Positions 3,497-62,260 of a DNA stretch of 64,000 nucleotides are shown in pieces (position 1 is the first letter of the stretch; each line of letters opens with the position of its first letter). The notes under the pieces were generated by a model. It was not told the origin of the DNA, searched no databases, and saw only the letters and a program-made list of their open reading frames with translations. The translations under genes and the position numbers were made by a program. Source of the DNA: an uncultured Candidatus Saccharibacteria bacterium (GTDB taxonomy: Bacteria; Patescibacteriota; Minisyncoccia; Phycocordibacterales; Zambryskibacteraceae); the NCBI GenBank assembly GCA_964348525.1, contig CAYGCY010000001.1, positions 21,873 through 85,872 on the forward strand. The letters run 5' to 3'.

Positions 3497-3760
3497 ATGC
3501 AAATAAGAAATTTAGAAAGAATACTTAAAGCCTTAGCAAACAGTCGCAGGCTGGAAATCTTGAAGTTTCTGCGGGGCAAGACTGCAAATGTGGGGGAGAT
3601 AGCTGAAGCCATAAAACTTTCATTCAAATCAACGTCGAGGCATCTTTCTATTCTGGCCGGTGCCGATATTTTGGAGAAAGACTATGTCAGTAACCAAGTT
3701 TATTACCACCTTTCGCCGAGCCCTCATACTTTGGTAAAAAAGACACTATCTATTCTCTAA
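3497..3760 (+). CDS. ArsR/SmtB-family winged-helix transcriptional regulator (start could be GTG 3488)
   Basis: LKALANSRRLEILKFL...VGEIAEAIKLSFKSTSRHLSILAGADIL HTH pattern of ArsR family. Confidence 0.6.
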   Translation: MQIRNLERILKALANSRRLEILKFLRGKTANVGEIAEAIKLSFKSTSRHLSILAGADILEKDYVSNQVYYHLSPSPHTLVKKTLSIL

Positions 3761-3781
3761 TTCGTACGAATTAGAGAATAG
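3750..3781. repeat. Second copy of the same palindrome (CTATTCTCTAATTCGtacCGAATTAGAGAATAG) overlapping the ArsR stop codon
   Basis: arm sequence identical to 3413-3448 palindrome; overlaps stop TAA 3758-3760. Confidence 0.5.
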
Positions 3782-3853
3782 ATAGTGGTGGGGGAGGTGG
3801 GGTTTGTTTGGGCATAGTTTGGTGTTGGTTTTTTTGTTATTGTGTAGGTTAAT

Positions 3854-3924
3854 TGCCAGTTCGTCTAATGGTAGGACGACCGCCTCTGGAGCGGTTAATT
3901 GGGGTTCGAGTCCCTGACTGGCAG
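3854..3924 (+). tRNA. tRNA-Gln (anticodon CUG)
   Basis: 7-bp acceptor TGCCAGT/ACTGGCA with U1:A72 (characteristic of tRNA-Gln), U8, D-stem GTCT/GGAC, anticodon stem ACCGC/GCGGT, loop CTCTGGA (CTG), T-loop TTCGAGT, discriminator G; no encoded CCA. Confidence 0.75.
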
Positions 3925-4105
3925 CAAATGGGCAAAGCCGATTTTCTGCTAGTCAGCAAAGCAATTTATTGCTTTGCGTAGGGTACTCGAAAGGCGCAGG
4001 TGTATTTTTGTTTTGCAAGGCAAAGGCAAAAATACCGAGCAGGGGTCGCGAAAAATTTCCGTCAGGAAATTTATTTGTGACCGAGTCCCTGACTGGCAGC
4101 AAATG
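3907..4105 (+). repeat. 24-bp direct repeat of the tRNA-Gln 3' end (CGAGTCCCTGACTGGCAGCAAATG at 3907-3930 and 4082-4105) bracketing a 151-bp hairpin-rich insert
   Basis: exact 24-nt duplication read in sequence; att-site-like arrangement. Confidence 0.6.
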
Positions 4106-4184
4106 ACTTGAGAAAACAGCTTGCTTTATCTCCACGCTCTGTTATCTTTAGCAGTTCACAGAACTTTATTCGTAATTAAATCAA

Positions 4185-4370
4185 ATGGACGAAAACAATA
4201 CAAACGCAAATCCTATTGCTGATACATCTGTGGGTACAAACCCGCAAGAGCCAGTAGTAGCGCCAGCGCAAACACCGGAAGTGGCAGAAACAATGCCAGC
4301 ACCGGAAGCAACAGTAGTGCCAGAAACACCAGTCGCAGATGCGCCAGCCGAGGAACCAGCTCAAGCGTAA
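4185..4370 (+). CDS. Small acidic Pro/Ala/Thr/Glu-rich low-complexity protein (61 aa), hypothetical
   Basis: ORF followed 8 nt later by a clean intrinsic terminator; no SD; composition-biased, so could be non-coding. Confidence 0.3.
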   Translation: MDENNTNANPIADTSVGTNPQEPVVAPAQTPEVAETMPAPEATVVPETPVADAPAEEPAQA

Positions 4371-6532: not shown

Positions 6533-6961
6533 ATGAAAAAGTCTATAATCATTTTAATAGTAATTTTCTTGGCCCTAGGGTTTTTTGTTTTTTCGAATAA
6601 ATTTCAAAAAGAAGGCACCATCTACAATAATGCTTCAGCGAATGACATTGTGGTTGAGTTGCCTTATCCTGATGCTGTCACGGGAAAAGAATTTAGCGTA
6701 ATAGGTAGCGCGCGGGGCTTCTGGTTTTTTGAGGGCTCGTTTCCTTTAGAAGTATTAGACGAAAATGGTAAAAGTATTGCTGTGGGCTACGCTCAGGCAG
6801 AAGGAGAATGGATGACCACAGAATTTGTGCCTTTTAAAGGCGAGATAAAGGTACCGGAGAGCTATATAGGTAAAGCTGTTTTAGTTTTGAAAAAGGATAA
6901 TCCGTCTGGGATACCCGAAAAAGATGCCAGCATTTCTTTCAAATTCAATATTGAATACTAG
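6533..6961 (+). CDS. Membrane-anchored Gmad2 immunoglobulin-like domain protein (ORF track start 6494)
   Basis: N-terminal TM; C-terminal GSARGFWFFEGSFPLEVLDENGKSIAVGYAQAEGEWMTTEFVPFKGEI resembles Gmad2/GerM-associated Ig-like domain. Confidence 0.5.
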   Translation: MKKSIIILIVIFLALGFFVFSNKFQKEGTIYNNASANDIVVELPYPDAVTGKEFSVIGSARGFWFFEGSFPLEVLDENGKSIAVGYAQAEGEWMTTEFVPFKGEIKVPESYIGKAVLVLKKDNPSGIPEKDASISFKFNIEY

Positions 6962-7013
6962 TTTTCTGTCACGGGAGTATAATTTAGGTTAATTAATCAT
7001 TTAATTTATTACC

Positions 7014-7277
7014 ATGCAAAAAGTACAAACACATAAAGTAGGTTTAGTCTTGGGTGCGTCTTTGGGAGTTTTTCATCTAATCTGGGCGCTTTTAGTGGCT
7101 TCCGGCACAGCTCAAAGTATGATGGATTTTGTTTTCAAACTGCACATGATTAATCCGCCATATACTATTGCTTCATTTAGTTTCGGTTTGGCGCTCACGC
7201 TTATAATTGTTACCGCTGTCATAGGCTATATTGCCGGCTTGATAATGGGGTATCTTTGGAACAAGTTAGTCGCATAA
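7014..7277 (+). CDS. Small membrane protein (2 TM), hypothetical
   Basis: two hydrophobic helices; no recognisable domain. Confidence 0.4.
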   Translation: MQKVQTHKVGLVLGASLGVFHLIWALLVASGTAQSMMDFVFKLHMINPPYTIASFSFGLALTLIIVTAVIGYIAGLIMGYLWNKLVA

Positions 7278-8493: not shown

Positions 8494-9036
8494 ATGTCTC
8501 GCTATAAATCTAACCTAGTTCTAATATTGATAGTTCTCATTTTTTTTGTGGGGGCATTTTTGTCTGTAAGAAAAAATAAAGAAAACCAAAATTTTATAAT
8601 AGACTCATTTGATAAGTGTGTGACGGCTGGTTTTCCAGTGCAGGAATCTTTTCCTAGGAAATGTACCGATGGCATAGGGGCAGTATTTACAGAAGAAATA
8701 ATCGTAAAAGATTCAAAACAGAGCGAAGCGCTTAGAGTGTTTTATCCAACCCCATCAACAAGGGTTTCTACCCCAGTTTCTTTTTCTGGAGAAGCAAGGG
8801 GAATTTGGTTTAAAGAGAATACATTTAGCGTCGAAGTAAGAGATAAAGATGGCAAAACACTAGCGAAATCTAAAGTAGTCAGAGAAGAGGATGTCTATGT
8901 AGATAAATTAAATTATTTTGACGATCTTATCGCCATCCCAATGAACGTGTCTTCTCAGGAGCTTATGCTCGTATTCATAAATGGCAACATGAATGGGGAA
9001 GAGGTGGTAGTGCCCATTAATTATCTCAAGAAATAA
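8494..9036 (+). CDS. Membrane-anchored Gmad2 Ig-like domain protein (paralog of 6533-6961)
   Basis: N-terminal TM; GEARGIWFKENTFSVEVRDKDGKTLAKSKVV... parallels the first Gmad2 protein. Confidence 0.5.
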   Translation: MSRYKSNLVLILIVLIFFVGAFLSVRKNKENQNFIIDSFDKCVTAGFPVQESFPRKCTDGIGAVFTEEIIVKDSKQSEALRVFYPTPSTRVSTPVSFSGEARGIWFKENTFSVEVRDKDGKTLAKSKVVREEDVYVDKLNYFDDLIAIPMNVSSQELMLVFINGNMNGEEVVVPINYLKK

Positions 9037-10246: not shown

Positions 10247-10308
10247 AAACCAGAAATGCCTCGTCACGGAGAGATAAACCTCGCTCCTAAACGAGGCATT
10301 TCTGGTTT
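10247..10308 (+). repeat. Hairpin element copy A (conserved loop CACGGAGAGATAAACCTCGCTCCTAA; 18-bp perfect stem)
   Basis: stem AAACCAGAAATGCCTCGT / ACGAGGCATTTCTGGTTT read directly; loop matches family consensus. Confidence 0.8.
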
Positions 10309-10325
10309 ATATTTATATTAAGACG

Positions 10326-14454: not shown

Positions 14455-14520
14455 AAAAACAAAGTCCCACAGCTCGTCATGGAAAGATATACCTTGCCTC
14501 CAAATGAACTACAAGACTTT
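14455..14520 (+). repeat. Probable degenerate copy of the hairpin element (core TCATGGAAAGATATACCTTGCCTCCAAATG, ~22/29 matches; weak stem)
   Basis: similarity to family core read by eye. Confidence 0.3.
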
Positions 14521-20277: not shown

Positions 20278-20289
20278 TTTTATGGCAAT

Positions 20290-20377
20290 GGAGGCGTCGG
20301 ATAGTGGTTTATTCCACCACCTTGGAAAGGTGGCATACCGAAAGGTATCGTGAGTTCGAATCTCACCGCCTCCGCCC
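20290..20377 (+). tRNA. tRNA-Ser (anticodon GGA), class II with long variable arm
   Basis: acceptor GGAGGCG/CGCCTCC, 3-bp D-stem, anticodon stem CCACC/GGTGG loop TTGGAAA, variable arm CATACCGAAAGGTATCG, T-arm GTGAG-TTCGAAT-CTCAC, discriminator G. Confidence 0.8.
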
Positions 20378-27635: not shown

Positions 27636-27697
27636 AAAACAAAAGTACCTTATCACGGAGAGATATACCGCGCTCCTAAATGAGGTATTTTTGTTTT
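27636..27697 (+). repeat. Hairpin element copy B (loop TCACGGAGAGATATACCGCGCTCCTAA)
   Basis: stem AAAACAAAAGTACCTTAT / ATGAGGTATTTTTGTTTT (16/18 paired). Confidence 0.8.
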
Positions 27698-27806
27698 AGA
27701 TAGCATAAAAATGTCCCACTACAGGCAGTAAAACTTGTTTCTAAACGAGATGTTTTGGCCTTGTGTTAAATACAGCTCTAAAGAAGCTAATGATATAATT
27801 ATCCTA

Positions 27807-36534: not shown

Positions 36535-36600
36535 AAAGCAAAGTGCCTCACCACGGAGAGATATACCGCGCTCCTAAACGAAACGCCTTCACTTTTTGCT
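36535..36600 (+). repeat. Hairpin element copy C (loop CACGGAGAGATATACCGCGCTCCTAAAC)
   Basis: imperfect stem AAAGCAAAGTGCCTC / GCCTTCACTTTTTGCT. Confidence 0.7.
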
Positions 36601-36611
36601 AAAAAAGAGTC

Positions 36612-38481: not shown

Positions 38482-38551
38482 AAAATGAGTCGGATATTTT
38501 TCTTTTGGAGAGATATACCGCACTCCGCAGAAAAACACCCCACTCATTTTA
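38482..38551 (+). repeat. Hairpin element copy D, variant loop (TTGGAGAGATATACCGCACTCCGCAGAAAAA)
   Basis: stem AAAATGAGT / ACTCATTTT; core GGAGAGATATACCGC-CTCC conserved. Confidence 0.7.
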
Positions 38552-39962: not shown

Positions 39963-40391
39963 ATGATAGCGGTCTACATTTTCTATGGTTCACTTATTGG
40001 TATGCTCGGCATGCTAACTGTGAAAATGTATGAAGCAAAAAGAAGACGAAGAAGTTTGGTGTACAGAATATTCGTTAATTTTGACGAGATAACTCATGGA
40101 ATGCTTGCAAAAATTATGGGTAATTTGCGAGCAAAAAAAGATAGGTTCGAGGATTTTATGAAAGTAGATTTCAAAAAACTTCTCTATCTTTTGGCTGTGA
40201 AAGCTATTGCTCATATAAGGGAGTCTTATGATAAGATTCGTGAATCCTCAAGAGGGGTGCAGAAATTGAAAGAAAATCCCAAGGTGTCAGCCTTTTTGAG
40301 AGACATAGAGGAAGCAAAAAAAGAAATTAGCAAGAAAAACGAAGAAGAAAAAGCAGAGGAGTCGTTTTTGAGAGACAAATTGCCGGAGTAG
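39963..40391 (+). CDS. Hypothetical protein, N-terminal TM, K/E-rich; stop overlaps tRNA-Thr 5' end
   Basis: ORF only. Confidence 0.35.
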   Translation: MIAVYIFYGSLIGMLGMLTVKMYEAKRRRRSLVYRIFVNFDEITHGMLAKIMGNLRAKKDRFEDFMKVDFKKLLYLLAVKAIAHIRESYDKIRESSRGVQKLKENPKVSAFLRDIEEAKKEISKKNEEEKAEESFLRDKLPE

Positions 40392-40454
40392 CTCAGTTGG
40401 TAGAGCAATACTTTTGTAAAGTATGGGTCGCAGGTTCAAATCCTGTCTCCGGCT
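40382..40454 (+). tRNA. tRNA-Thr (anticodon UGU)
   Basis: acceptor GCCGGAG/CTCCGGC, D-arm GCTC-AGTTGGTA-GAGC, anticodon stem ATACT/AGTAT loop TTTGTAA, T-arm GCAGG-TTCAAAT-CCTGT, discriminator T. Confidence 0.85.
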
Positions 40455-40592
40455 CAAATAAAGTGTTTTATTTGAGTCTGGATTTGAAGGTCGGAGCGAT
40501 GTTTTGCTAGCAAGCAAAACCGCGAGACGGGGTCGCGACCGAGCCGAGTGACGACGAGCCGAGAGTTGTGGCCTAATCCTGTCTCCGGCTCA
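40439..40592 (+). repeat. 18-bp direct repeat of the tRNA-Thr 3' end (AATCCTGTCTCCGGCTCA at 40439-40456 and 40575-40592) bracketing a 118-bp insert homologous to the one downstream of tRNA-Gln
   Basis: exact duplication; both inserts share TTTTGCTAG(C/T)(A)AGCAAA and GGGGTCGCGA blocks. Confidence 0.6.
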
Positions 40593-40638
40593 CTTATTGG
40601 TTTTAGCCCGCGTTCTTTGGTAGTCTGTACTCCTCTTT

Positions 40639-42177
40639 ATGAATTACACGAAGACCCAGTATTTTAAGGTCGGAAGATCAAGCGAACTGTCTCACAAAGA
40701 CAGGGTTTTATACAAAGCATTTGAAATGGTCCCAGGGCTACTTACTTGGGGGACTATTCTTCTCATAGTGTCTCTGTCAATTTTCAAGCCAATACTCGCT
40801 GCTTATGTGGTTATCCTTTTTGATCTGTACTGGCTTTTAAAGACCGTGTACCTTTCTTCTCACAATATGCATAACTGGCGTCGCATAAGACAAAATTTGA
40901 AAACTGATTGGACGGGTATGGTGTCCCATTTAAAACACGAACATATCTTTCATTTAGTAATATTTCCTTTTTATGACGAGTCTTTCAGGGTGGTTGCAGA
41001 TAGCGTTGAAAGTATTAAAAAAGCAAATTACAATCACAAAAATATTTTTATAGTCTTGGCTTCAGAAGAGCGAGCAGGTGATGATGCAAAAGCAATCTGT
41101 AAAAAAGTCATAGCAAAATACAAAAATGATTTTGCAGGAATTATCTATACCTCTCACCCTGCAAATGTTCCGGGAGAATTAGCGGGGAAGGGCTCTAACA
41201 TTTCTCACGCCGCTGAAGAGGCCAGAAAAGAAATTCTTGATATTAAAAAAATTCCTTATGAAAATGTCCTAGTATCTGCCTTTGATATAGATACTGTTGT
41301 TTACCCAGACTATTTTCTTTGCCTCACATGGCATTTCCTAACTGTAGAGGATCCTCTCCATGCTTCTTTTCAGCCGGTTCCTATCTACAACAATAATATT
41401 TGGCAAACCAATCCTATTTCAAGAGTTACAGCATTTTCAAATACTTTTTGGCAAATGATTCAGCAAGAAAGACCTGAAAAGCTCGTTACTTTTTCTTCCC
41501 ATGCTGTGAATTTTAAATCTCTTTTTGATGTAGGTTATTGGCAAAAAAATATGGTTTCTGAGGATTCTCGTATTTTCTGGAATCTCTTTTTTGCCAACGA
41601 CGGAAATTATCGAGTGGTACCTATGGCTTATCCAGTATCTATGGACGCTAATTCTGCTGGCAGTTTTTGGGGAACTCTAAAAAATATTTACAAACAACAC
41701 AGACGATGGATGTGGGGAGCTGAGAATGTTCCGTACCTGCTTATTGGGTGTTTAAAAAATAGCAAAATTTCATTGAAGAAAAAAATTAGAATGATAGCCG
41801 TACAATTAGAGGGCTATTGGTCGGCAGCTACTAACCCTCTTATTATTTTTCTTTTAGGATGGTTACCACTTATTTTGGGAGGGAAATTTTTTAGAGAAAC
41901 AGTGCTTTCCTACAACCTACCGGTGGTTACTAGAAATCTAATGATAGGTGCCATGCTCGGGTTGGTAACACTCGCTATTATGTCCTTCTCGCTTTTGCCA
42001 AAACTAAACAATGGAAAAGCTATTACAAAAAAACAGAAATTTATGGCAGTAGCACAGTGGGCACTCATTCCATTTACTATAATAATGTTTGGTTCTGTCC
42101 CAGCCATAGATGCTCAAACACGACTTTTATTTGGTAGATATATGGGCTTCTGGGTAACACCGAAATTCAGAAAATAA
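40639..42177 (+). CDS. Membrane-integrated processive family-2 glycosyltransferase (cellulose/chitin-synthase-like)
   Basis: multiple TM helices flanking a GT2 domain; Q-x-x-R-W motif (QHRRW). Confidence 0.7.
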   Translation: MNYTKTQYFKVGRSSELSHKDRVLYKAFEMVPGLLTWGTILLIVSLSIFKPILAAYVVILFDLYWLLKTVYLSSHNMHNWRRIRQNLKTDWTGMVSHLKHEHIFHLVIFPFYDESFRVVADSVESIKKANYNHKNIFIVLASEERAGDDAKAICKKVIAKYKNDFAGIIYTSHPANVPGELAGKGSNISHAAEEARKEILDIKKIPYENVLVSAFDIDTVVYPDYFLCLTWHFLTVEDPLHASFQPVPIYNNNIWQTNPISRVTAFSNTFWQMIQQERPEKLVTFSSHAVNFKSLFDVGYWQKNMVSEDSRIFWNLFFANDGNYRVVPMAYPVSMDANSAGSFWGTLKNIYKQHRRWMWGAENVPYLLIGCLKNSKISLKKKIRMIAVQLEGYWSAATNPLIIFLLGWLPLILGGKFFRETVLSYNLPVVTRNLMIGAMLGLVTLAIMSFSLLPKLNNGKAITKKQKFMAVAQWALIPFTIIMFGSVPAIDAQTRLLFGRYMGFWVTPKFRK

Positions 42178-47811: not shown

Positions 47812-47873
47812 CTAAAGCAAAAGCCTCATTACGGAGAGATAAACCTCGTTCCTAAACGAGGCATTTCTGCTTT
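47812..47873 (+). repeat. Hairpin element copy E (loop TACGGAGAGATAAACCTCGTTCCTAAAC)
   Basis: stem AAGCAAAAGCCTC / GAGGCATTTCTGCTT, imperfect. Confidence 0.7.
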
Positions 47874-47904
47874 GTGTAAATAATAAAAATATATTTTGTT
47901 ACAA

Positions 47905-61695: not shown

Positions 61696-61757
61696 ATTGG
61701 GAAGGCATTGTCACGGAGAGATATGCCGCGCTCCTAAACAATTCCCTCCCAGTCCTT
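61696..61757 (+). repeat. Hairpin element copy F (loop TCACGGAGAGATATGCCGCGCTCCTAAAC), overlapping the rnr 5' end on the opposite strand
   Basis: stem GGATTGGGAAGGCATTG / CAATTCCCTCCCAGTCC (14/17). Confidence 0.7.
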
Positions 61758-61817
61758 TCCGGTTAAAACTTTAACATATCTTGCAGTAGTTCTTAAATTT
61801 GGTACTATAGCGCGACA

Positions 61818-62116: not shown

Positions 62117-62180
62117 GCAAAATAAGGAGCCTTGTCACGGAGAGATATACCTCGCTCCTAAACAAGGCCCCTTATTTTGC
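62117..62180 (+). repeat. Hairpin element copy G (loop TCACGGAGAGATATACCTCGCTCCTAAA)
   Basis: stem GCAAAATAAGGAGCCTTG / CAAGGCCCCTTATTTTGC (17/18). Confidence 0.8.
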
Positions 62181-62260
62181 TTTTACTGATATAAGGGAGG
62201 GGTATTTCATTGTGCTAAAATGTTCTTGGTAGTTATTTAGTATTTAATTAAACGAAAGAA

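Follow-up and report, generated by a model that had tools for sequence, protein, structure and literature searches.

A previously undescribed family of gene-less, structured inserts at the 3' ends of tRNA and other genes in CPR/Patescibacteria

Described systems closest to the insert

The elements that tyrosine integrases insert into tRNA and tmRNA genes, such as P4-like islands, tycheposons and CIMEs, have on either side a direct repeat of the target gene's 3' part. They supply a new gene end while displacing the old one, and they take as targets tRNA genes, tmRNA genes and the 3' ends of protein genes. Insertion occurs in two registers, at the T-loop and at the extreme 3' end, and orthologous sites are found empty. 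Each of these traits recurs in the family of inserts analysed here, one copy of which lies downstream of a tRNA-Gln gene in a 64-kb stretch of DNA (the window, meaning the whole stretch analysed). Unlike the integrase elements, however, the family has no integrase or other ORF, measures 120-250 nt instead of kilobases and has no phage or plasmid counterpart in the collections searched. Its conserved part is a strand-specific, covarying three-way junction, whereas that of the integrase elements consists of protein-binding arm repeats, and it differs from them further in holding an internal antisense copy of the crossover region.

Other resemblances are to mobile elements that are aimed by base pairing. 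IS200/IS605 elements, PATEs and REP/BIME sequences have strand-specific hairpins near both ends, to which the strand-specific structure of the family may be comparable. In IS200/IS605 a short internal guide pairs with the flank that defines the insertion site, a role that the guide of the family may share, and insertion is oriented, 3' of a defined sequence, as in the family; the ORF-less derivatives of 100-200 nt, which are mobilised in trans, are a further likeness. The IS200/IS605 guide is nevertheless 4-5 nt long and lies 5' of the hairpin foot, whereas that of the family is 7-11 nt long and lies 3' of the left hairpin. In addition, IS200/IS605 elements have neither a target duplication nor a replacement gene end, a further difference from the family, and no Y1 transposase was found near copies in the window or in the 8-kb flanks from other genomes. 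The bridge (seek) RNAs of IS110/IS1111 are likewise structured mobile-element RNAs, of about 150-190 nt, with a segment complementary to the integration target. They contain a pair of programmable internal loops, specific for target and donor respectively, and adjoin a recombinase gene within an element of 1.2-1.5 kb, whereas the internal loops of the family are conserved, a single 5' stretch varies and no ORF or recombinase adjoins the copies.

Introns in tRNA genes of the same host phylum are also structured and tRNA-associated, with internal sequence that pairs with exon-like sequence. These introns lie in the anticodon loop, exceed 200 nt, match Rfam intron models and interrupt the gene, whereas the family leaves the gene intact and lacks a match to intron or ribozyme models. 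Rickettsia palindromic elements and bacterial MITEs resemble the family in being short, ORF-less hairpin repeats dispersed in a reduced genome, with some copies located within conserved genes such as ssrA. MITEs are bounded by terminal inverted repeats and duplicate a short target stretch of fixed length, and neither feature is present here: the left end of the family (CGAGTCC.. or CACAAAA..) has no inverted counterpart in the right end (..TTGTGAC), its inverted copy lying inside the element. Gene-end replacement and a target-complementary sequence set the family apart from MITEs as well. The CPR/Patescibacteria account for a large share of bacterial diversity, and their genomes are tiny, with few mobile elements recognised and little non-coding RNA known. 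The insert family is previously undescribed, gene-less and highly structured, and it occurs across this group; a full-text search of the literature returned no description of such an element.

The copies at tRNA-Gln and tRNA-Thr

All features of the window described below lie on the plus strand. The target gene, tRNA-Gln(CUG), occupies 3854-3924, and both ARAGORN and Rfam (56.1 bits) place its 3' boundary at 3924/5. The sequence-only reading, which had taken the tRNA as intact with a U1:A72 pair and a CUG anticodon and had pointed to a 24-nt repeat of its 3' end across 151 bp, is correct. That repeat, CGAGTCCCTGACTGGCAGCAAATG, occurs exactly twice, at 3907-3930 and 4082-4105, against 0 expected from 100 shuffles with up to 3 mismatches allowed, and the interval between the repeats (3931-4081) is indeed 151 nt. 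The left repeat comprises the 18 nt from C56 to G73 of the tRNA and the 6-nt trailer CAAATG. By analogy with the topA copies described below, it is probably the replacement gene end supplied by the element, a role that goes beyond the earlier reading. The right repeat would then be the displaced original tRNA-Gln 3' end with its trailer. An imperfect upstream extension brings the repeat to 36 nt at 86% identity; this extension is the conserved element end (AyTTGTGAC) and does not come from the tRNA.

Between the left repeat and the core lie several small structures. At 3931-3945, sequence reading and comparison with other copies identify a small hairpin, GGC-AAA-GCC, followed by GATTTT. It occupies the same position as the terminator-like first hairpin of other copies, and a simple terminator scan made no call there. 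Folds then show a distal antisense segment, CTGCTAGTCAG (3946-3956), which pairs with CTGACTGGCAG, that is, the T-stem 3' strand, the acceptor strand and G73, through a helix with one U.G pair. Selection for RNA processing or termination, and not for targeting, could account for the long, near-palindromic hairpin made by a gene end with its antisense copy. An antisense-acceptor hairpin also occurs at one tRNA-Gln gene that is without any core (L151). The next hairpin, GCAAAGCAA-TTTA-TTGCTTTGC (3956-3977), was recognised by sequence reading and folding. Many other copies have a counterpart with a CTGC loop, and this counterpart is kept between two near-identical copies (L093 and L116). Directly 5' of the core is the guide, GGGTACTCG (3981-3989), which is complementary to CGAGT-CCC, the first bases of both tRNA-Gln repeats.

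The core itself (3990-4081) was delimited with the covariance model R1 and pair counts, and it belongs to a subfamily with a long P2. It runs from the junction AAA through P2 (3993-4041) and GGG (4042-4044) to P3 (4045-4081). P2 contains a conserved internal loop (GSA/GA) and a bulge, while P3 has the apical loop GUCA and the 3' end ..ATTTGTGAC. Both hairpins of the sequence-only reading are present, the second being AAATTTCC-GTCA-GGAAATTT at 4053-4072 within this core. R1 scores the copy at 3979-4094 with 103.4 bits (E 4.4e-29). Treated as one transcript, 3854-4110 folds far better than shuffled sequence (z = -8.4).

A second occupied target in the window is tRNA-Thr(UGU), called by ARAGORN and Rfam at 40382-40454. 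Its left repeat runs from C56 through U73 plus CA (40437-40456) and its right repeat, the displaced tRNA-Thr 3' end, lies at 40573-40592; 18 nt are exact (40439-40456 and 40575-40592) and 19 of 20 agree in register from C56. The contig of a 98% relative (L128) begins exactly at 40575. Sequence reading and folding place the first hairpin, CTCAAATAAA-GTGT-TTTATTTGAG, at 40453-40476, and its foot takes in the last bases of the tRNA. The guide, CTGGATTTG (40478-40486), is complementary to CAAATCC.G of the T-loop and T-stem, matching the left repeat at 8 of 9 positions and the right repeat at 7 of 9. The core (40487-40572) belongs by R1 and alignment to a short-P2 subfamily and is composed of P2 (40489-40528), GGG and P3 (40532-40572), the last with two tandem G.A motifs (CCGAG../..CCGAG and CGAGU-GACG-ACGAG). 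The similarity of the two inserts that had been noticed earlier takes the form of a common block, GTTTTGC..GCAAAA..CGAG NN GGGGTCGCGA, and the same covariance model scores both, the Thr copy at 40476-40585 with 77.2 bits (E 3.4e-21). The Rfam gathering scan finds 3 tRNAs and nothing else in the window; the third, tRNA-Ser (20289-20377), is without a 3'-end repeat, and the covariance model detects no further credible copy in the 64 kb. At the protein level, no record is identical to the EF-Ts or the ArsR of the window.

Targets, guide and core of the family

The sequence-only reading had proposed a search for further copies beside tRNA genes. A 20-base motif common to both inserts matches more than 119 loci, against about 4 expected by chance, nearly all in metagenome-assembled genomes of CPR/Patescibacteria. 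Same-strand tRNA ends of about 20 isotypes lie 65-270 nt upstream in about 88 of 121 motif matches. Targets other than tRNA genes, which that reading did not include, are tmRNA genes, confirmed with Rfam, and the 3' end of a topoisomerase I-like (topA) gene. In the fetched loci, which have 8-kb flanks, 115 of 223 tRNA and tmRNA genes bear a copy, a share that, like the identity within the motif, is biased upward because the loci were fetched by the core motif. The window has 2 copies, as many as 5-6 occur within 8 kb at other loci, and tandem and nested arrangements exist. They always lie on the sense strand directly downstream of the target gene and are consistent in length, 120-250 nt in all, of which about 95 nt are core. 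L146 represents at least one cousin family, whose core is different.

From 5' to 3', a copy consists of the left repeat (the gene 3' end), one or two hairpins, the guide, the core and the right repeat. The first hairpin is terminator-like and stands ahead of the core, which ends in TTGTGAC. The guide, 7-11 nt long, complements the first bases of the repeat, with a mean match of 7.65 of 9 positions to the left repeat and 5.3 of 9 to the right. Counted from the tRNA end, the position where the matched site begins has a bimodal distribution with peaks at -18 and -2, which corresponds to insertion either ahead of C56 in the T-loop or close to position 72/73 at the extreme 3' end. Roughly half of the copies are in the -2 register, outside the mature tRNA. 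Repeats span about 3-8 nt in the 3'-end register, 18-30 nt in the T-loop register and 60-80 nt at topA, and reach at least 14 nt in about 20 fetched loci.

Repeats of some copies are diverged homologues instead of copies of each other. At topA, the left and right repeats differ mainly at synonymous sites, of every kind. When two topA loci from different species are compared (L051 and L066), the upstream gene is 70-85% identical, the segment from the left repeat through P2 is 92-100% identical, the right repeat 75% and the downstream DNA about 55%. The element would thus bring its own gene 3' end, so the target gene stays intact. In copies other than the one at tRNA-Gln the right repeat decays and the gene's own terminator comes next; mutations and indels are frequent, for example at three tmRNA loci (L006, L106 and L110). 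At topA, the reading frame of the right repeat is intact in all five loci.

An alignment of 104 copies gives the core as a three-way junction. Paired cells amount to 93.3%, compared with 74.9% after shuffling and 39-44% when the partners are slid, and 598 cells show double-sided, compensatory changes. P2 and P3 are 97-99% paired, while helix 1, formed by guide and repeat, is paired in 76.5% of cells, with covariation in 7 of its 7 pairs. A G.U pair at columns 98:158 is invariant, and 100:156 is G.U in 90 copies and G-C in 11. The internal loops (GSA/GA) are conserved; in the three-nucleotide bulge the first two positions vary and the U is invariant. Variation is limited to the 5' guide and the stems, and the structure is strand-specific. 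The strand-specific, RNA-like junction and the internal segment complementary to the insertion site both go beyond what an att scar explains.

Several other readings of these segments were rejected. CAGGG/ACGGG before GTCGCGA had been considered as a T-stem 5' strand covarying with each tRNA, and GTCGGAG in the Thr insert as a copy of the acceptor strand; neither held, because in the 104-copy alignment the segments belong to P2, whose pairs covary among themselves, independently of the tRNA. Hammerhead, hairpin and HDV-like cores, a retroviral-type primer-binding site, an integron attC site and the template/variable repeat pair of a diversity-generating retroelement, all weighed by reading the sequence, were dropped because junction lengths, conserved bases or the pattern of differences do not fit; for the last, the topA differences fall at synonymous sites and no reverse transcriptase was found. 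Coding potential of the insert was likewise rejected because copy lengths differ by non-multiples of 3 and the changes are compensatory, and no ORF was found in the copies. With Rfam 15, no intron or ribozyme family matched 3800-4200 or 40350-40650 at E values up to 10. Apart from the tRNAs, the matches were weak chance ones to snoRNA, sRNA and microRNA families (best E 0.65).

Orthologous loci without the insert, which the sequence-only reading had thought worth seeking for tRNA-Gln, exist for both targets. Three empty tRNA-Thr sites (L129, L130 and L131) have the same synteny, RF1-S2-EF-Ts-orf-tRNA-Thr-GT2-PheS. Two empty tRNA-Gln sites (L141 and L138), located through the pattern of the tRNA 3' end and ftsEX synteny, have the order ftsE-ftsX-tRNA-Gln; a first metagenome pattern of 45 nt gave no match. 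The downstream methyltransferase was no route to an empty tRNA-Gln site; its homologues are 64-71% identical, non-syntenic and have no tRNA nearby. In the reconstructed empty alleles, CTTATTGG.. follows tRNA-Thr directly, and tRNA-Gln is continuous with its trailer and ACTTGAG... Across the family, the nearest-neighbour core has the same target in 6 of 79 cases, and cores 97-98% identical occur at unlike targets in different species (Lys/Ile, tmRNA/Lys and Arg/Val). Very high core identity across distant lineages could reflect constraint instead of transfer.

Explanations for the insert

The insert is probably a copy of an ORF-less, non-autonomous family of integrative elements that is mobilised in trans in CPR/Patescibacteria. 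The sequence-only reading had left the choice between a decayed remnant and a miniature non-autonomous element. The latter is the right choice; conservation of the core in more than 100 species, covariation and consistent length go against the former. Its description of the locus as a classic attL/attR footprint holds for the flanking duplication of the tRNA end and not for an integrase, which neither the element nor the 64-kb window contains and which does not recur near the 119 other copies. Pfam searches of 50 window ORFs, including every ORF of at least 180 aa, found no recombinase, transposase or reverse transcriptase domain. All-against-all comparison of 1170 ORFs from the 119 loci and the window yielded housekeeping clusters and no recurrent recombinase, and the 119 loci contained no integrase remnant near copies. 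The motif has 0 matches in viral contigs, and blastn gave 0 matches in phage and plasmid collections. The integrase-made attL/attR reading stays unproven because neither an integrase nor a phage or plasmid counterpart was found.

For such a trans-mobilised element, integration might proceed by Campbell-type site-specific recombination between the element's copy of the target end and the chromosomal gene, with exchange at the short segment that pairs with the guide. The catalyst would be a protein encoded elsewhere, and the form it recognises may be the folded sense strand, either as RNA or as single-stranded DNA. The guide would mostly read near-universal tRNA features, namely the T-loop or the N72-A73-C74 end.

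A more tentative proposal is that of a self-targeting mobile nucleic acid, in which the guide on the folded sense strand directs the element's own integration, carried out by a small protein or by its own catalysis. The folded strand, RNA or single-stranded DNA, would pair through its guide with the T-loop or 3' end of tRNA-like genes, and the protein, if any, would be small, of host origin or acting in trans, and of a kind with no established tie to mobile DNA. A viroid-like intermediate in the form of a small circle might be involved, in which the repeat:guide helix, P2 and P3 close a three-armed molecule. If this were true, the element would parallel bridge-RNA or group II-intron targeting in a protein-less form.

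It is rather unlikely that the core is instead a non-coding RNA module of the host, transcribed together with tRNA, tmRNA or topA for 3' processing, termination or tRNA quality control, which spread among genes by duplication and gene conversion and is not a selfish element. Such a module would account for the constant sense-strand position directly downstream of a gene, for the strong covariation with its RNA-like conserved G.U pair and for the stability of the whole-transcript fold. No promoter-like site was found inside the element, which would therefore be read through from the tRNA, and the long duplex of tRNA end and guide would be a substrate for RNase III, which is encoded in the window. 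A host function fits poorly, however, with its absence from orthologous sites of relatives and its presence at only about half of the tRNAs in carrier loci. Also against it are the duplication of a protein-gene 3' end and its replacement by a diverged copy, the tandem and nested copies, the decay of the right repeat and the terminator-like hairpin that precedes the core.

Spread solely by natural transformation and homologous recombination, with the conserved gene and the right repeat as arms and no dedicated recombinase, is decidedly improbable. The targets (tRNA, tmRNA and the zinc-ribbon end of topA) are among the most conserved sequences of the genome, between-species identity climbs at the left repeat in the topA loci, and a prevalence of competence genes has been reported for Patescibacteria (PMC12455944), all of which would suit this route. 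It leaves unaccounted for the conserved structured core and guide, the near-identical cores at different tRNAs and the 3'-end-register copies with a repeat of merely 3-8 nt.

We regard as very unlikely an intron-like insert in the T-loop, whereby the true tRNA would consist of the 5' part and the right repeat, and the stretch from the left repeat to GUGAC would be removed by a small ribozyme or enzyme. The minimum-energy fold of 3854-4110 does make a cloverleaf from the 5' part and the right repeat, with left repeat and guide paired, and the intact right-repeat frame at topA is also in keeping with removal. [quoted passage not shown] Just as hard to credit is the idea that a conventional integrase-bearing island or prophage was lost and a decayed attL/attR scar stayed behind: direct repeats of the tRNA 3' end on both sides and the two registers would fit it. 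Against it stand a single core of about 95 nt shared by more than 100 species, in which changes are compensatory and two subfamilies are stable, a consistent length, no integrase remnant nearby and no similarity in viral contigs or phage and plasmid records. The T-loop and the extreme 3' end are the sublocations that Williams reportedly assigned to tyrosine integrases in 2002.

The inserts offer a clean comparative system: sites are found both occupied and vacant, insertion has two registers, and the family has two subfamilies besides at least one cousin family. Such a system could reveal by what means a gene-less, structured module of about 100 nt moves and finds its target. Should the guide indeed direct integration, this module would be a very compact natural targeting device. 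The family is unannotated yet multi-copy, and it changes what lies 3' of essential genes (tRNA, tmRNA and topA). In annotation, it produces tRNA-fragment repeats, can lead to spurious small ORFs and may be a source of contig breaks.

Two inserts in the window and the family to which they belong

The tRNA-Gln(CUG) gene lies at 3854-3924 (ARAGORN and Rfam), and the 24-nt repeat of its 3' end described in the sequence-only reading is exact. This 24-mer, CGAGTCCCTGACTGGCAGCAAATG, comprises tRNA positions C56-G73 and 6 nt of trailer; it occurs in the window only at 3907-3930 and 4082-4105, even with three mismatches allowed, and has no match in shuffled sequence. The two copies are spaced 151 nt apart, and both hairpins reported in the insert between them are present. 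The same layout is found at tRNA-Thr(UGU) (40382-40454), where 40439-40456 and 40575-40592 form an exact repeat of 18 nt (19/20 if counted from C56); the tRNA-Ser of the window has no repeat of its end. The sequence blocks thought to be common to the two inserts were confirmed as GTTTTGC..GCAAAA..CGAG-NN-GGGGTCGCGA. In addition, 104 copies were aligned (A2) and turned into a covariance model, R1, whose hits in the window are exactly two: 3979-4094 (103 bits) and 40476-40585 (77 bits). The surrounding genes are those of an ordinary chromosome segment of the ultra-small CPR bacteria (RF1/RF2, FtsEX, RNase J, GroEL, GAPDH, transketolase, S2, EF-Ts, PheS, GyrB, DnaE, RNase HII, NusB, RNase III, SMC, RNase R and TrmD), and their closest protein relatives are labelled Minisyncoccia/Paceibacteria.

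In a database of one genome per species, the pattern GCAAAA N{2,5} CGAG NN GGGGTCGCGA matches at least 119 loci against about 4 expected by chance. Nearly all of the listed matches are CPR/Patescibacteria metagenome-assembled genomes, with carriers among Saccharibacteria, Paceibacterota/Parcubacteria and Adler-, Nomura-, Zambryski-, Kaiser- and Yonathbacteria. The suggestion that further copies might sit beside tRNA genes was borne out, as about 88 of 121 motif matches follow a same-strand tRNA ending 65-270 nt upstream. Within the first 100 loci R1 finds 128 copies, up to 5-6 per 8 kb. The same pattern has no match in the viral contigs scanned, nor does the insert match phage and plasmid collections by blastn. 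No Rfam family matches the element in a scan, and no description of it was found in Rfam 15 or the searchable literature. Two copies lie in bins not labelled as CPR, one assigned to Polaromonas (L001, 2.3-kb contig) and one to Elusimicrobiaceae (L018, 8.1-kb contig). Both contigs are short, and their DNA may come from CPR bacteria through mis-binning; should the labels prove correct, the family extends beyond CPR. In L121-L123, nhmmer gives a weak partial match (E 6e-4) between the 3' half of the core and DNA downstream of rplL (L7/L12) at ~8505-8594; no tRNA is called nearby, and the match may represent a diverged copy at another kind of target.

Anatomy and fold of the core

From A2 and a reading of the flanks, the order of parts on the sense strand is constant. 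The 3' part of the gene (left repeat) comes first and is followed by a hairpin resembling a terminator; many copies then have a second hairpin, whose loop is often CTGC. Next are a guide of 7-11 nt, which is complementary to the bases with which the repeat begins, the junction (G)AA(A), P2, GGG, P3 and the right repeat. P2 is built on a base of x1x2C / G y1y2 with the internal loop GSA/GA, then a 3-bp helix, a three-nucleotide bulge (consensus AUG, with U invariant) and an upper part UUUU(U)G(C)/(G)CAAAA(A) beneath a variable apex. In P3, GUCGCGA / UUGUGAC is accompanied by a bulged A and by a stem-loop that varies between copies. There are two recurrent subfamilies, each represented once in the window: the Gln copy has a long P2 apex and a P3 with a GUCA loop, and the Thr copy has a short P2 and a P3 on tandem G.A motifs (CGAGC-GACG-GCGAG). 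In one copy elsewhere (L060:76-279) the P3 stem is enlarged internally by ~90 nucleotides, so large insertions are tolerated in P3, which might be a site for carried cargo.

A hand-written structure was scored on A2 over 3420 cells and compared with 500 shuffles. Standard pairs fill 93.3% of the cells against 74.9% when shuffled, a value reached by 0/500 shuffles, and sliding the partners by 1-3 columns leaves 39-44% paired. Two-sided changes number 598 cells compared with 203 in shuffles, and the covariation score is 0.46 compared with 0.15. P2 and P3 are 97-99% paired. Invariance in this region is partly by construction because the fetching motif sits within it; the covarying positions fall outside the fixed bases of that motif. 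Columns 98:158 are G.U in 104/104 copies, and at columns 100:156 there are 90 copies with G.U and 11 with G-C. Accordingly, the fold is confined to the tRNA-sense strand, which points to RNA or single-stranded DNA of that strand. Since a scan for a promoter-like site ahead of the core found none and a terminator-like hairpin precedes it, a DNA or read-through form is slightly favored. From tRNA-Gln to the right repeat, the whole transcript folds at -112.8 kcal/mol (z = -8.4), with two alternative conformers in which the guide pairs with either repeat.

Targets and probable replacement of the gene end

The tRNA targets span about 20 isotypes. The fetched loci contain 223 tRNA/tmRNA genes whose downstream sequence is long enough to judge, and 115 of them are followed by a copy no more than 350 nt away, an occupancy biased by the choice of loci for having a copy. 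The matches for which no tRNA was called are of three kinds: copies that follow a tmRNA confirmed by Rfam (L006, L014, L021, L077, L096), copies behind another, more diverged copy in tandem or nested arrays (e.g. L011, L090, L099), and copies within the 3' end of topA, a 750-aa topoisomerase I-like gene with zinc-ribbon repeats (L051, L066, L081, L097, L112). On reverse complementation, the 9 nt of guide adjoining the core on its 5' side agree with a site in the upstream gene at a mean of 7.65/9 positions, as opposed to 5.3/9 for the start of the right repeat. Relative to the ARAGORN tRNA end, the guide-matched site begins at -18 or -2. The first register corresponds to C56 in the T-loop and includes both window copies; its repeats are 14-30 nt long and may run through the native terminator (L093). 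The second corresponds to about position 72/73, with a repeat of just ~3-8 nt (CAC AAA..), and its guide (..CTTTTGTGG) pairs with the tRNA end and the element's own first bases in a long near-perfect hairpin. With a T-loop and an N72-A73-C74 end that are nearly universal, most of the guide would recognize generic tRNA features, and this may explain how any tRNA or tmRNA can serve as a target.

The topA copies bear on the origin of each repeat. Their repeats of 60-80 nt encode a near-same peptide (KTIPERCS.K.C..H.P.K) and differ at most synonymous sites, including AGT/TCA serine codons. Between L051 and L066, identity is 70-85% in upstream topA, 92-100% from the left repeat through hairpin, guide and P2, 75% in the right repeat and ~55% in downstream DNA. 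By this profile, the unit of recent common ancestry starts at the guide-paired site and includes the new gene end. The left repeat thus appears to be the element's own and the right repeat the host's old gene end. In several tRNA and tmRNA loci the right repeat is followed by the apparent original gene terminator, and in others it accumulates substitutions and indels.

When each core is paired with the most similar core from another locus, 6/79 pairs share a tRNA species, compared with a random expectation of 4%. Cores that are 97-98% identical occur at different targets in different species (tRNA-Lys/tRNA-Ile, tmRNA/tRNA-Lys, tRNA-Glu/tRNA-Lys, tRNA-Arg/tRNA-Val). In pairwise alignments this near-identity runs from P2 (or the second hairpin) to TTGTGAC; guide, first hairpin and repeats track the target. 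The Gln insert contains chance ORFs only, and copies differ in length by non-multiples of three with compensatory changes. The cognate integrase sought for the element did not emerge: the 50 window ORFs scanned, including every ORF of at least 180 aa, contain no recombinase, and the neighborhoods of 119 copies share no recurrent recombinase-like cluster.

Integration probably proceeds by recombination of the chromosomal gene with the copy of the target end that the element carries, the exchange point being the short stretch available for pairing with the guide. The product would be an intact gene with an element-borne end and terminator, the old end being displaced. The catalyst would act in trans, and the conserved strand-specific junction is presumably what it recognizes.

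Empty sites, rival explanations and neighboring features

The element is an insertion, with empty orthologous sites in relatives. Around tRNA-Thr, the order RF1-S2-EF-Ts-small ORF-tRNA-Thr-GT2-x-PheS is maintained in L129, L130 and L131 (GT2 identity to the window 77%, 73% and 71%), where no copy is found and GT2 starts 18-50 nt after the tRNA. In 21 metagenome contigs there is a tRNA-Gln whose 3' end is the one seen in the window, and most of these contigs run straight into unrelated DNA; 8 have ftsE and/or ftsX in common with the window. Among these, L141 and L138 provide the uninterrupted tRNA-Gln locus that the sequence-only reading had proposed as a check; L146 and L148, also among the eight, carry other inserts (see below). 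Two Logan contigs from 98-99% relatives of the window organism end at a right repeat. L128 (98%) has its boundary precisely where the Thr right repeat starts (40575), which fits a filled/empty branch in the assembly graph, other causes being possible. L120 stops 7 nt before the end of the Gln right repeat (~4098) and has an A run 1 nt shorter. Both ends could reflect mixed filled and empty alleles in the samples or ordinary assembly breaks.

That the copies are a host RNA module is weakened by these empty sites, the topA duplication, the arrays of copies and the partial occupancy. An intron of the T-loop is likewise weakened, as the unspliced gene is already intact, there are copies outside the tRNA and the right repeats decay. 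Spread by transformation and homologous recombination alone does not explain the element, since it leaves the core, the guide and the change of targets unaccounted for. As for the earlier choice between a remnant and a miniature element, a non-autonomous integrative element stands, but a decayed att scar is contradicted by the conservation and covariation of the core. An assembly artefact is ruled out by the two window loci and >100 independent assemblies.

The element resembles a tRNA-targeting integrative element in footprint and a MITE or PATE in size, and its target-complementary segment is reminiscent of IS200/IS605 guides, IS110 bridge RNAs and intron guide sequences; it seems to differ from each in a defining feature. 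It is filed among non-autonomous integrative elements as a new variant with no prior description found. That its targeting mechanism is of a new kind is less likely than not, yet a serious option.

A cousin element lies downstream of a syntenic tRNA-Gln in L146 (JACCED010706367.1, ~6889-7060). Its layout is like that of the family, with a CTGC-loop hairpin, a guide GTCAGGGACGAG complementary to T-loop and T-stem, and a right repeat of the tRNA end, GGTCCCTGACTGACAG. The core is unrelated, ~75 nt long and ending ..GTAATCAC, and the element ends ..AATCAC, which suggests a superfamily with interchangeable cores. More diverged relatives accompany the R1 copy in L011, where they are upstream, and in L090, where they are downstream. 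In L148, tRNA-Gln is separated by an insert of just 26 nt from a 14-nt repeat of its end, which may be what is left of a copy after internal deletion. In L151 there are just a long hairpin that pairs the acceptor 3' strand with CTGCAAGTCAG and a second hairpin, with no core; this is either a remnant or a native trailer feature older than insertion. The motif C(T/C)AGTTAGAGCGAGGTTAT..CGCTCGAGATA, found just downstream of tRNA-Gln in unrelated contigs (L133, L142, L144, L145, L147, L152), could belong to a further small element linked to tRNAs or to a conserved trailer.

Other features were noted in the window. A perfect 20-bp palindrome, CACTATCTATTCTCTAATTC-GTAC-GAATTAGAGAATAGATAGTG, lies at 3744-3787 between an ArsR-like gene and tRNA-Gln; the scan called it a minus-strand terminator, alternatives being the ArsR operator or a terminator acting in both directions. 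Upstream of tRNA-Thr, the longest ORF (39963-40391) overlaps the tRNA, which starts at 40382, by 10 nt and has its stop codon inside it; the small ORF that relatives have in the same place (96-148 aa) stops a little short of the tRNA. A further dispersed repeat family has 8 copies in the 64 kb (10254-10321, 14481-14513, 27643-27710, 36541-36608, 38507-38539, 47819-47886, 61701-61768 and 62125-62192), all intergenic or at gene ends, and no Rfam family reaches gathering score at these sites. The repeat is a hairpin of ~55 nt whose apex, CACGGAGAGATAWACCKCGCTCCTAAAC, is conserved and whose outer stem varies, and 11/18 predicted pairs are maintained by two-sided changes; possible roles are those of terminator, REP-like element or regulatory RNA.
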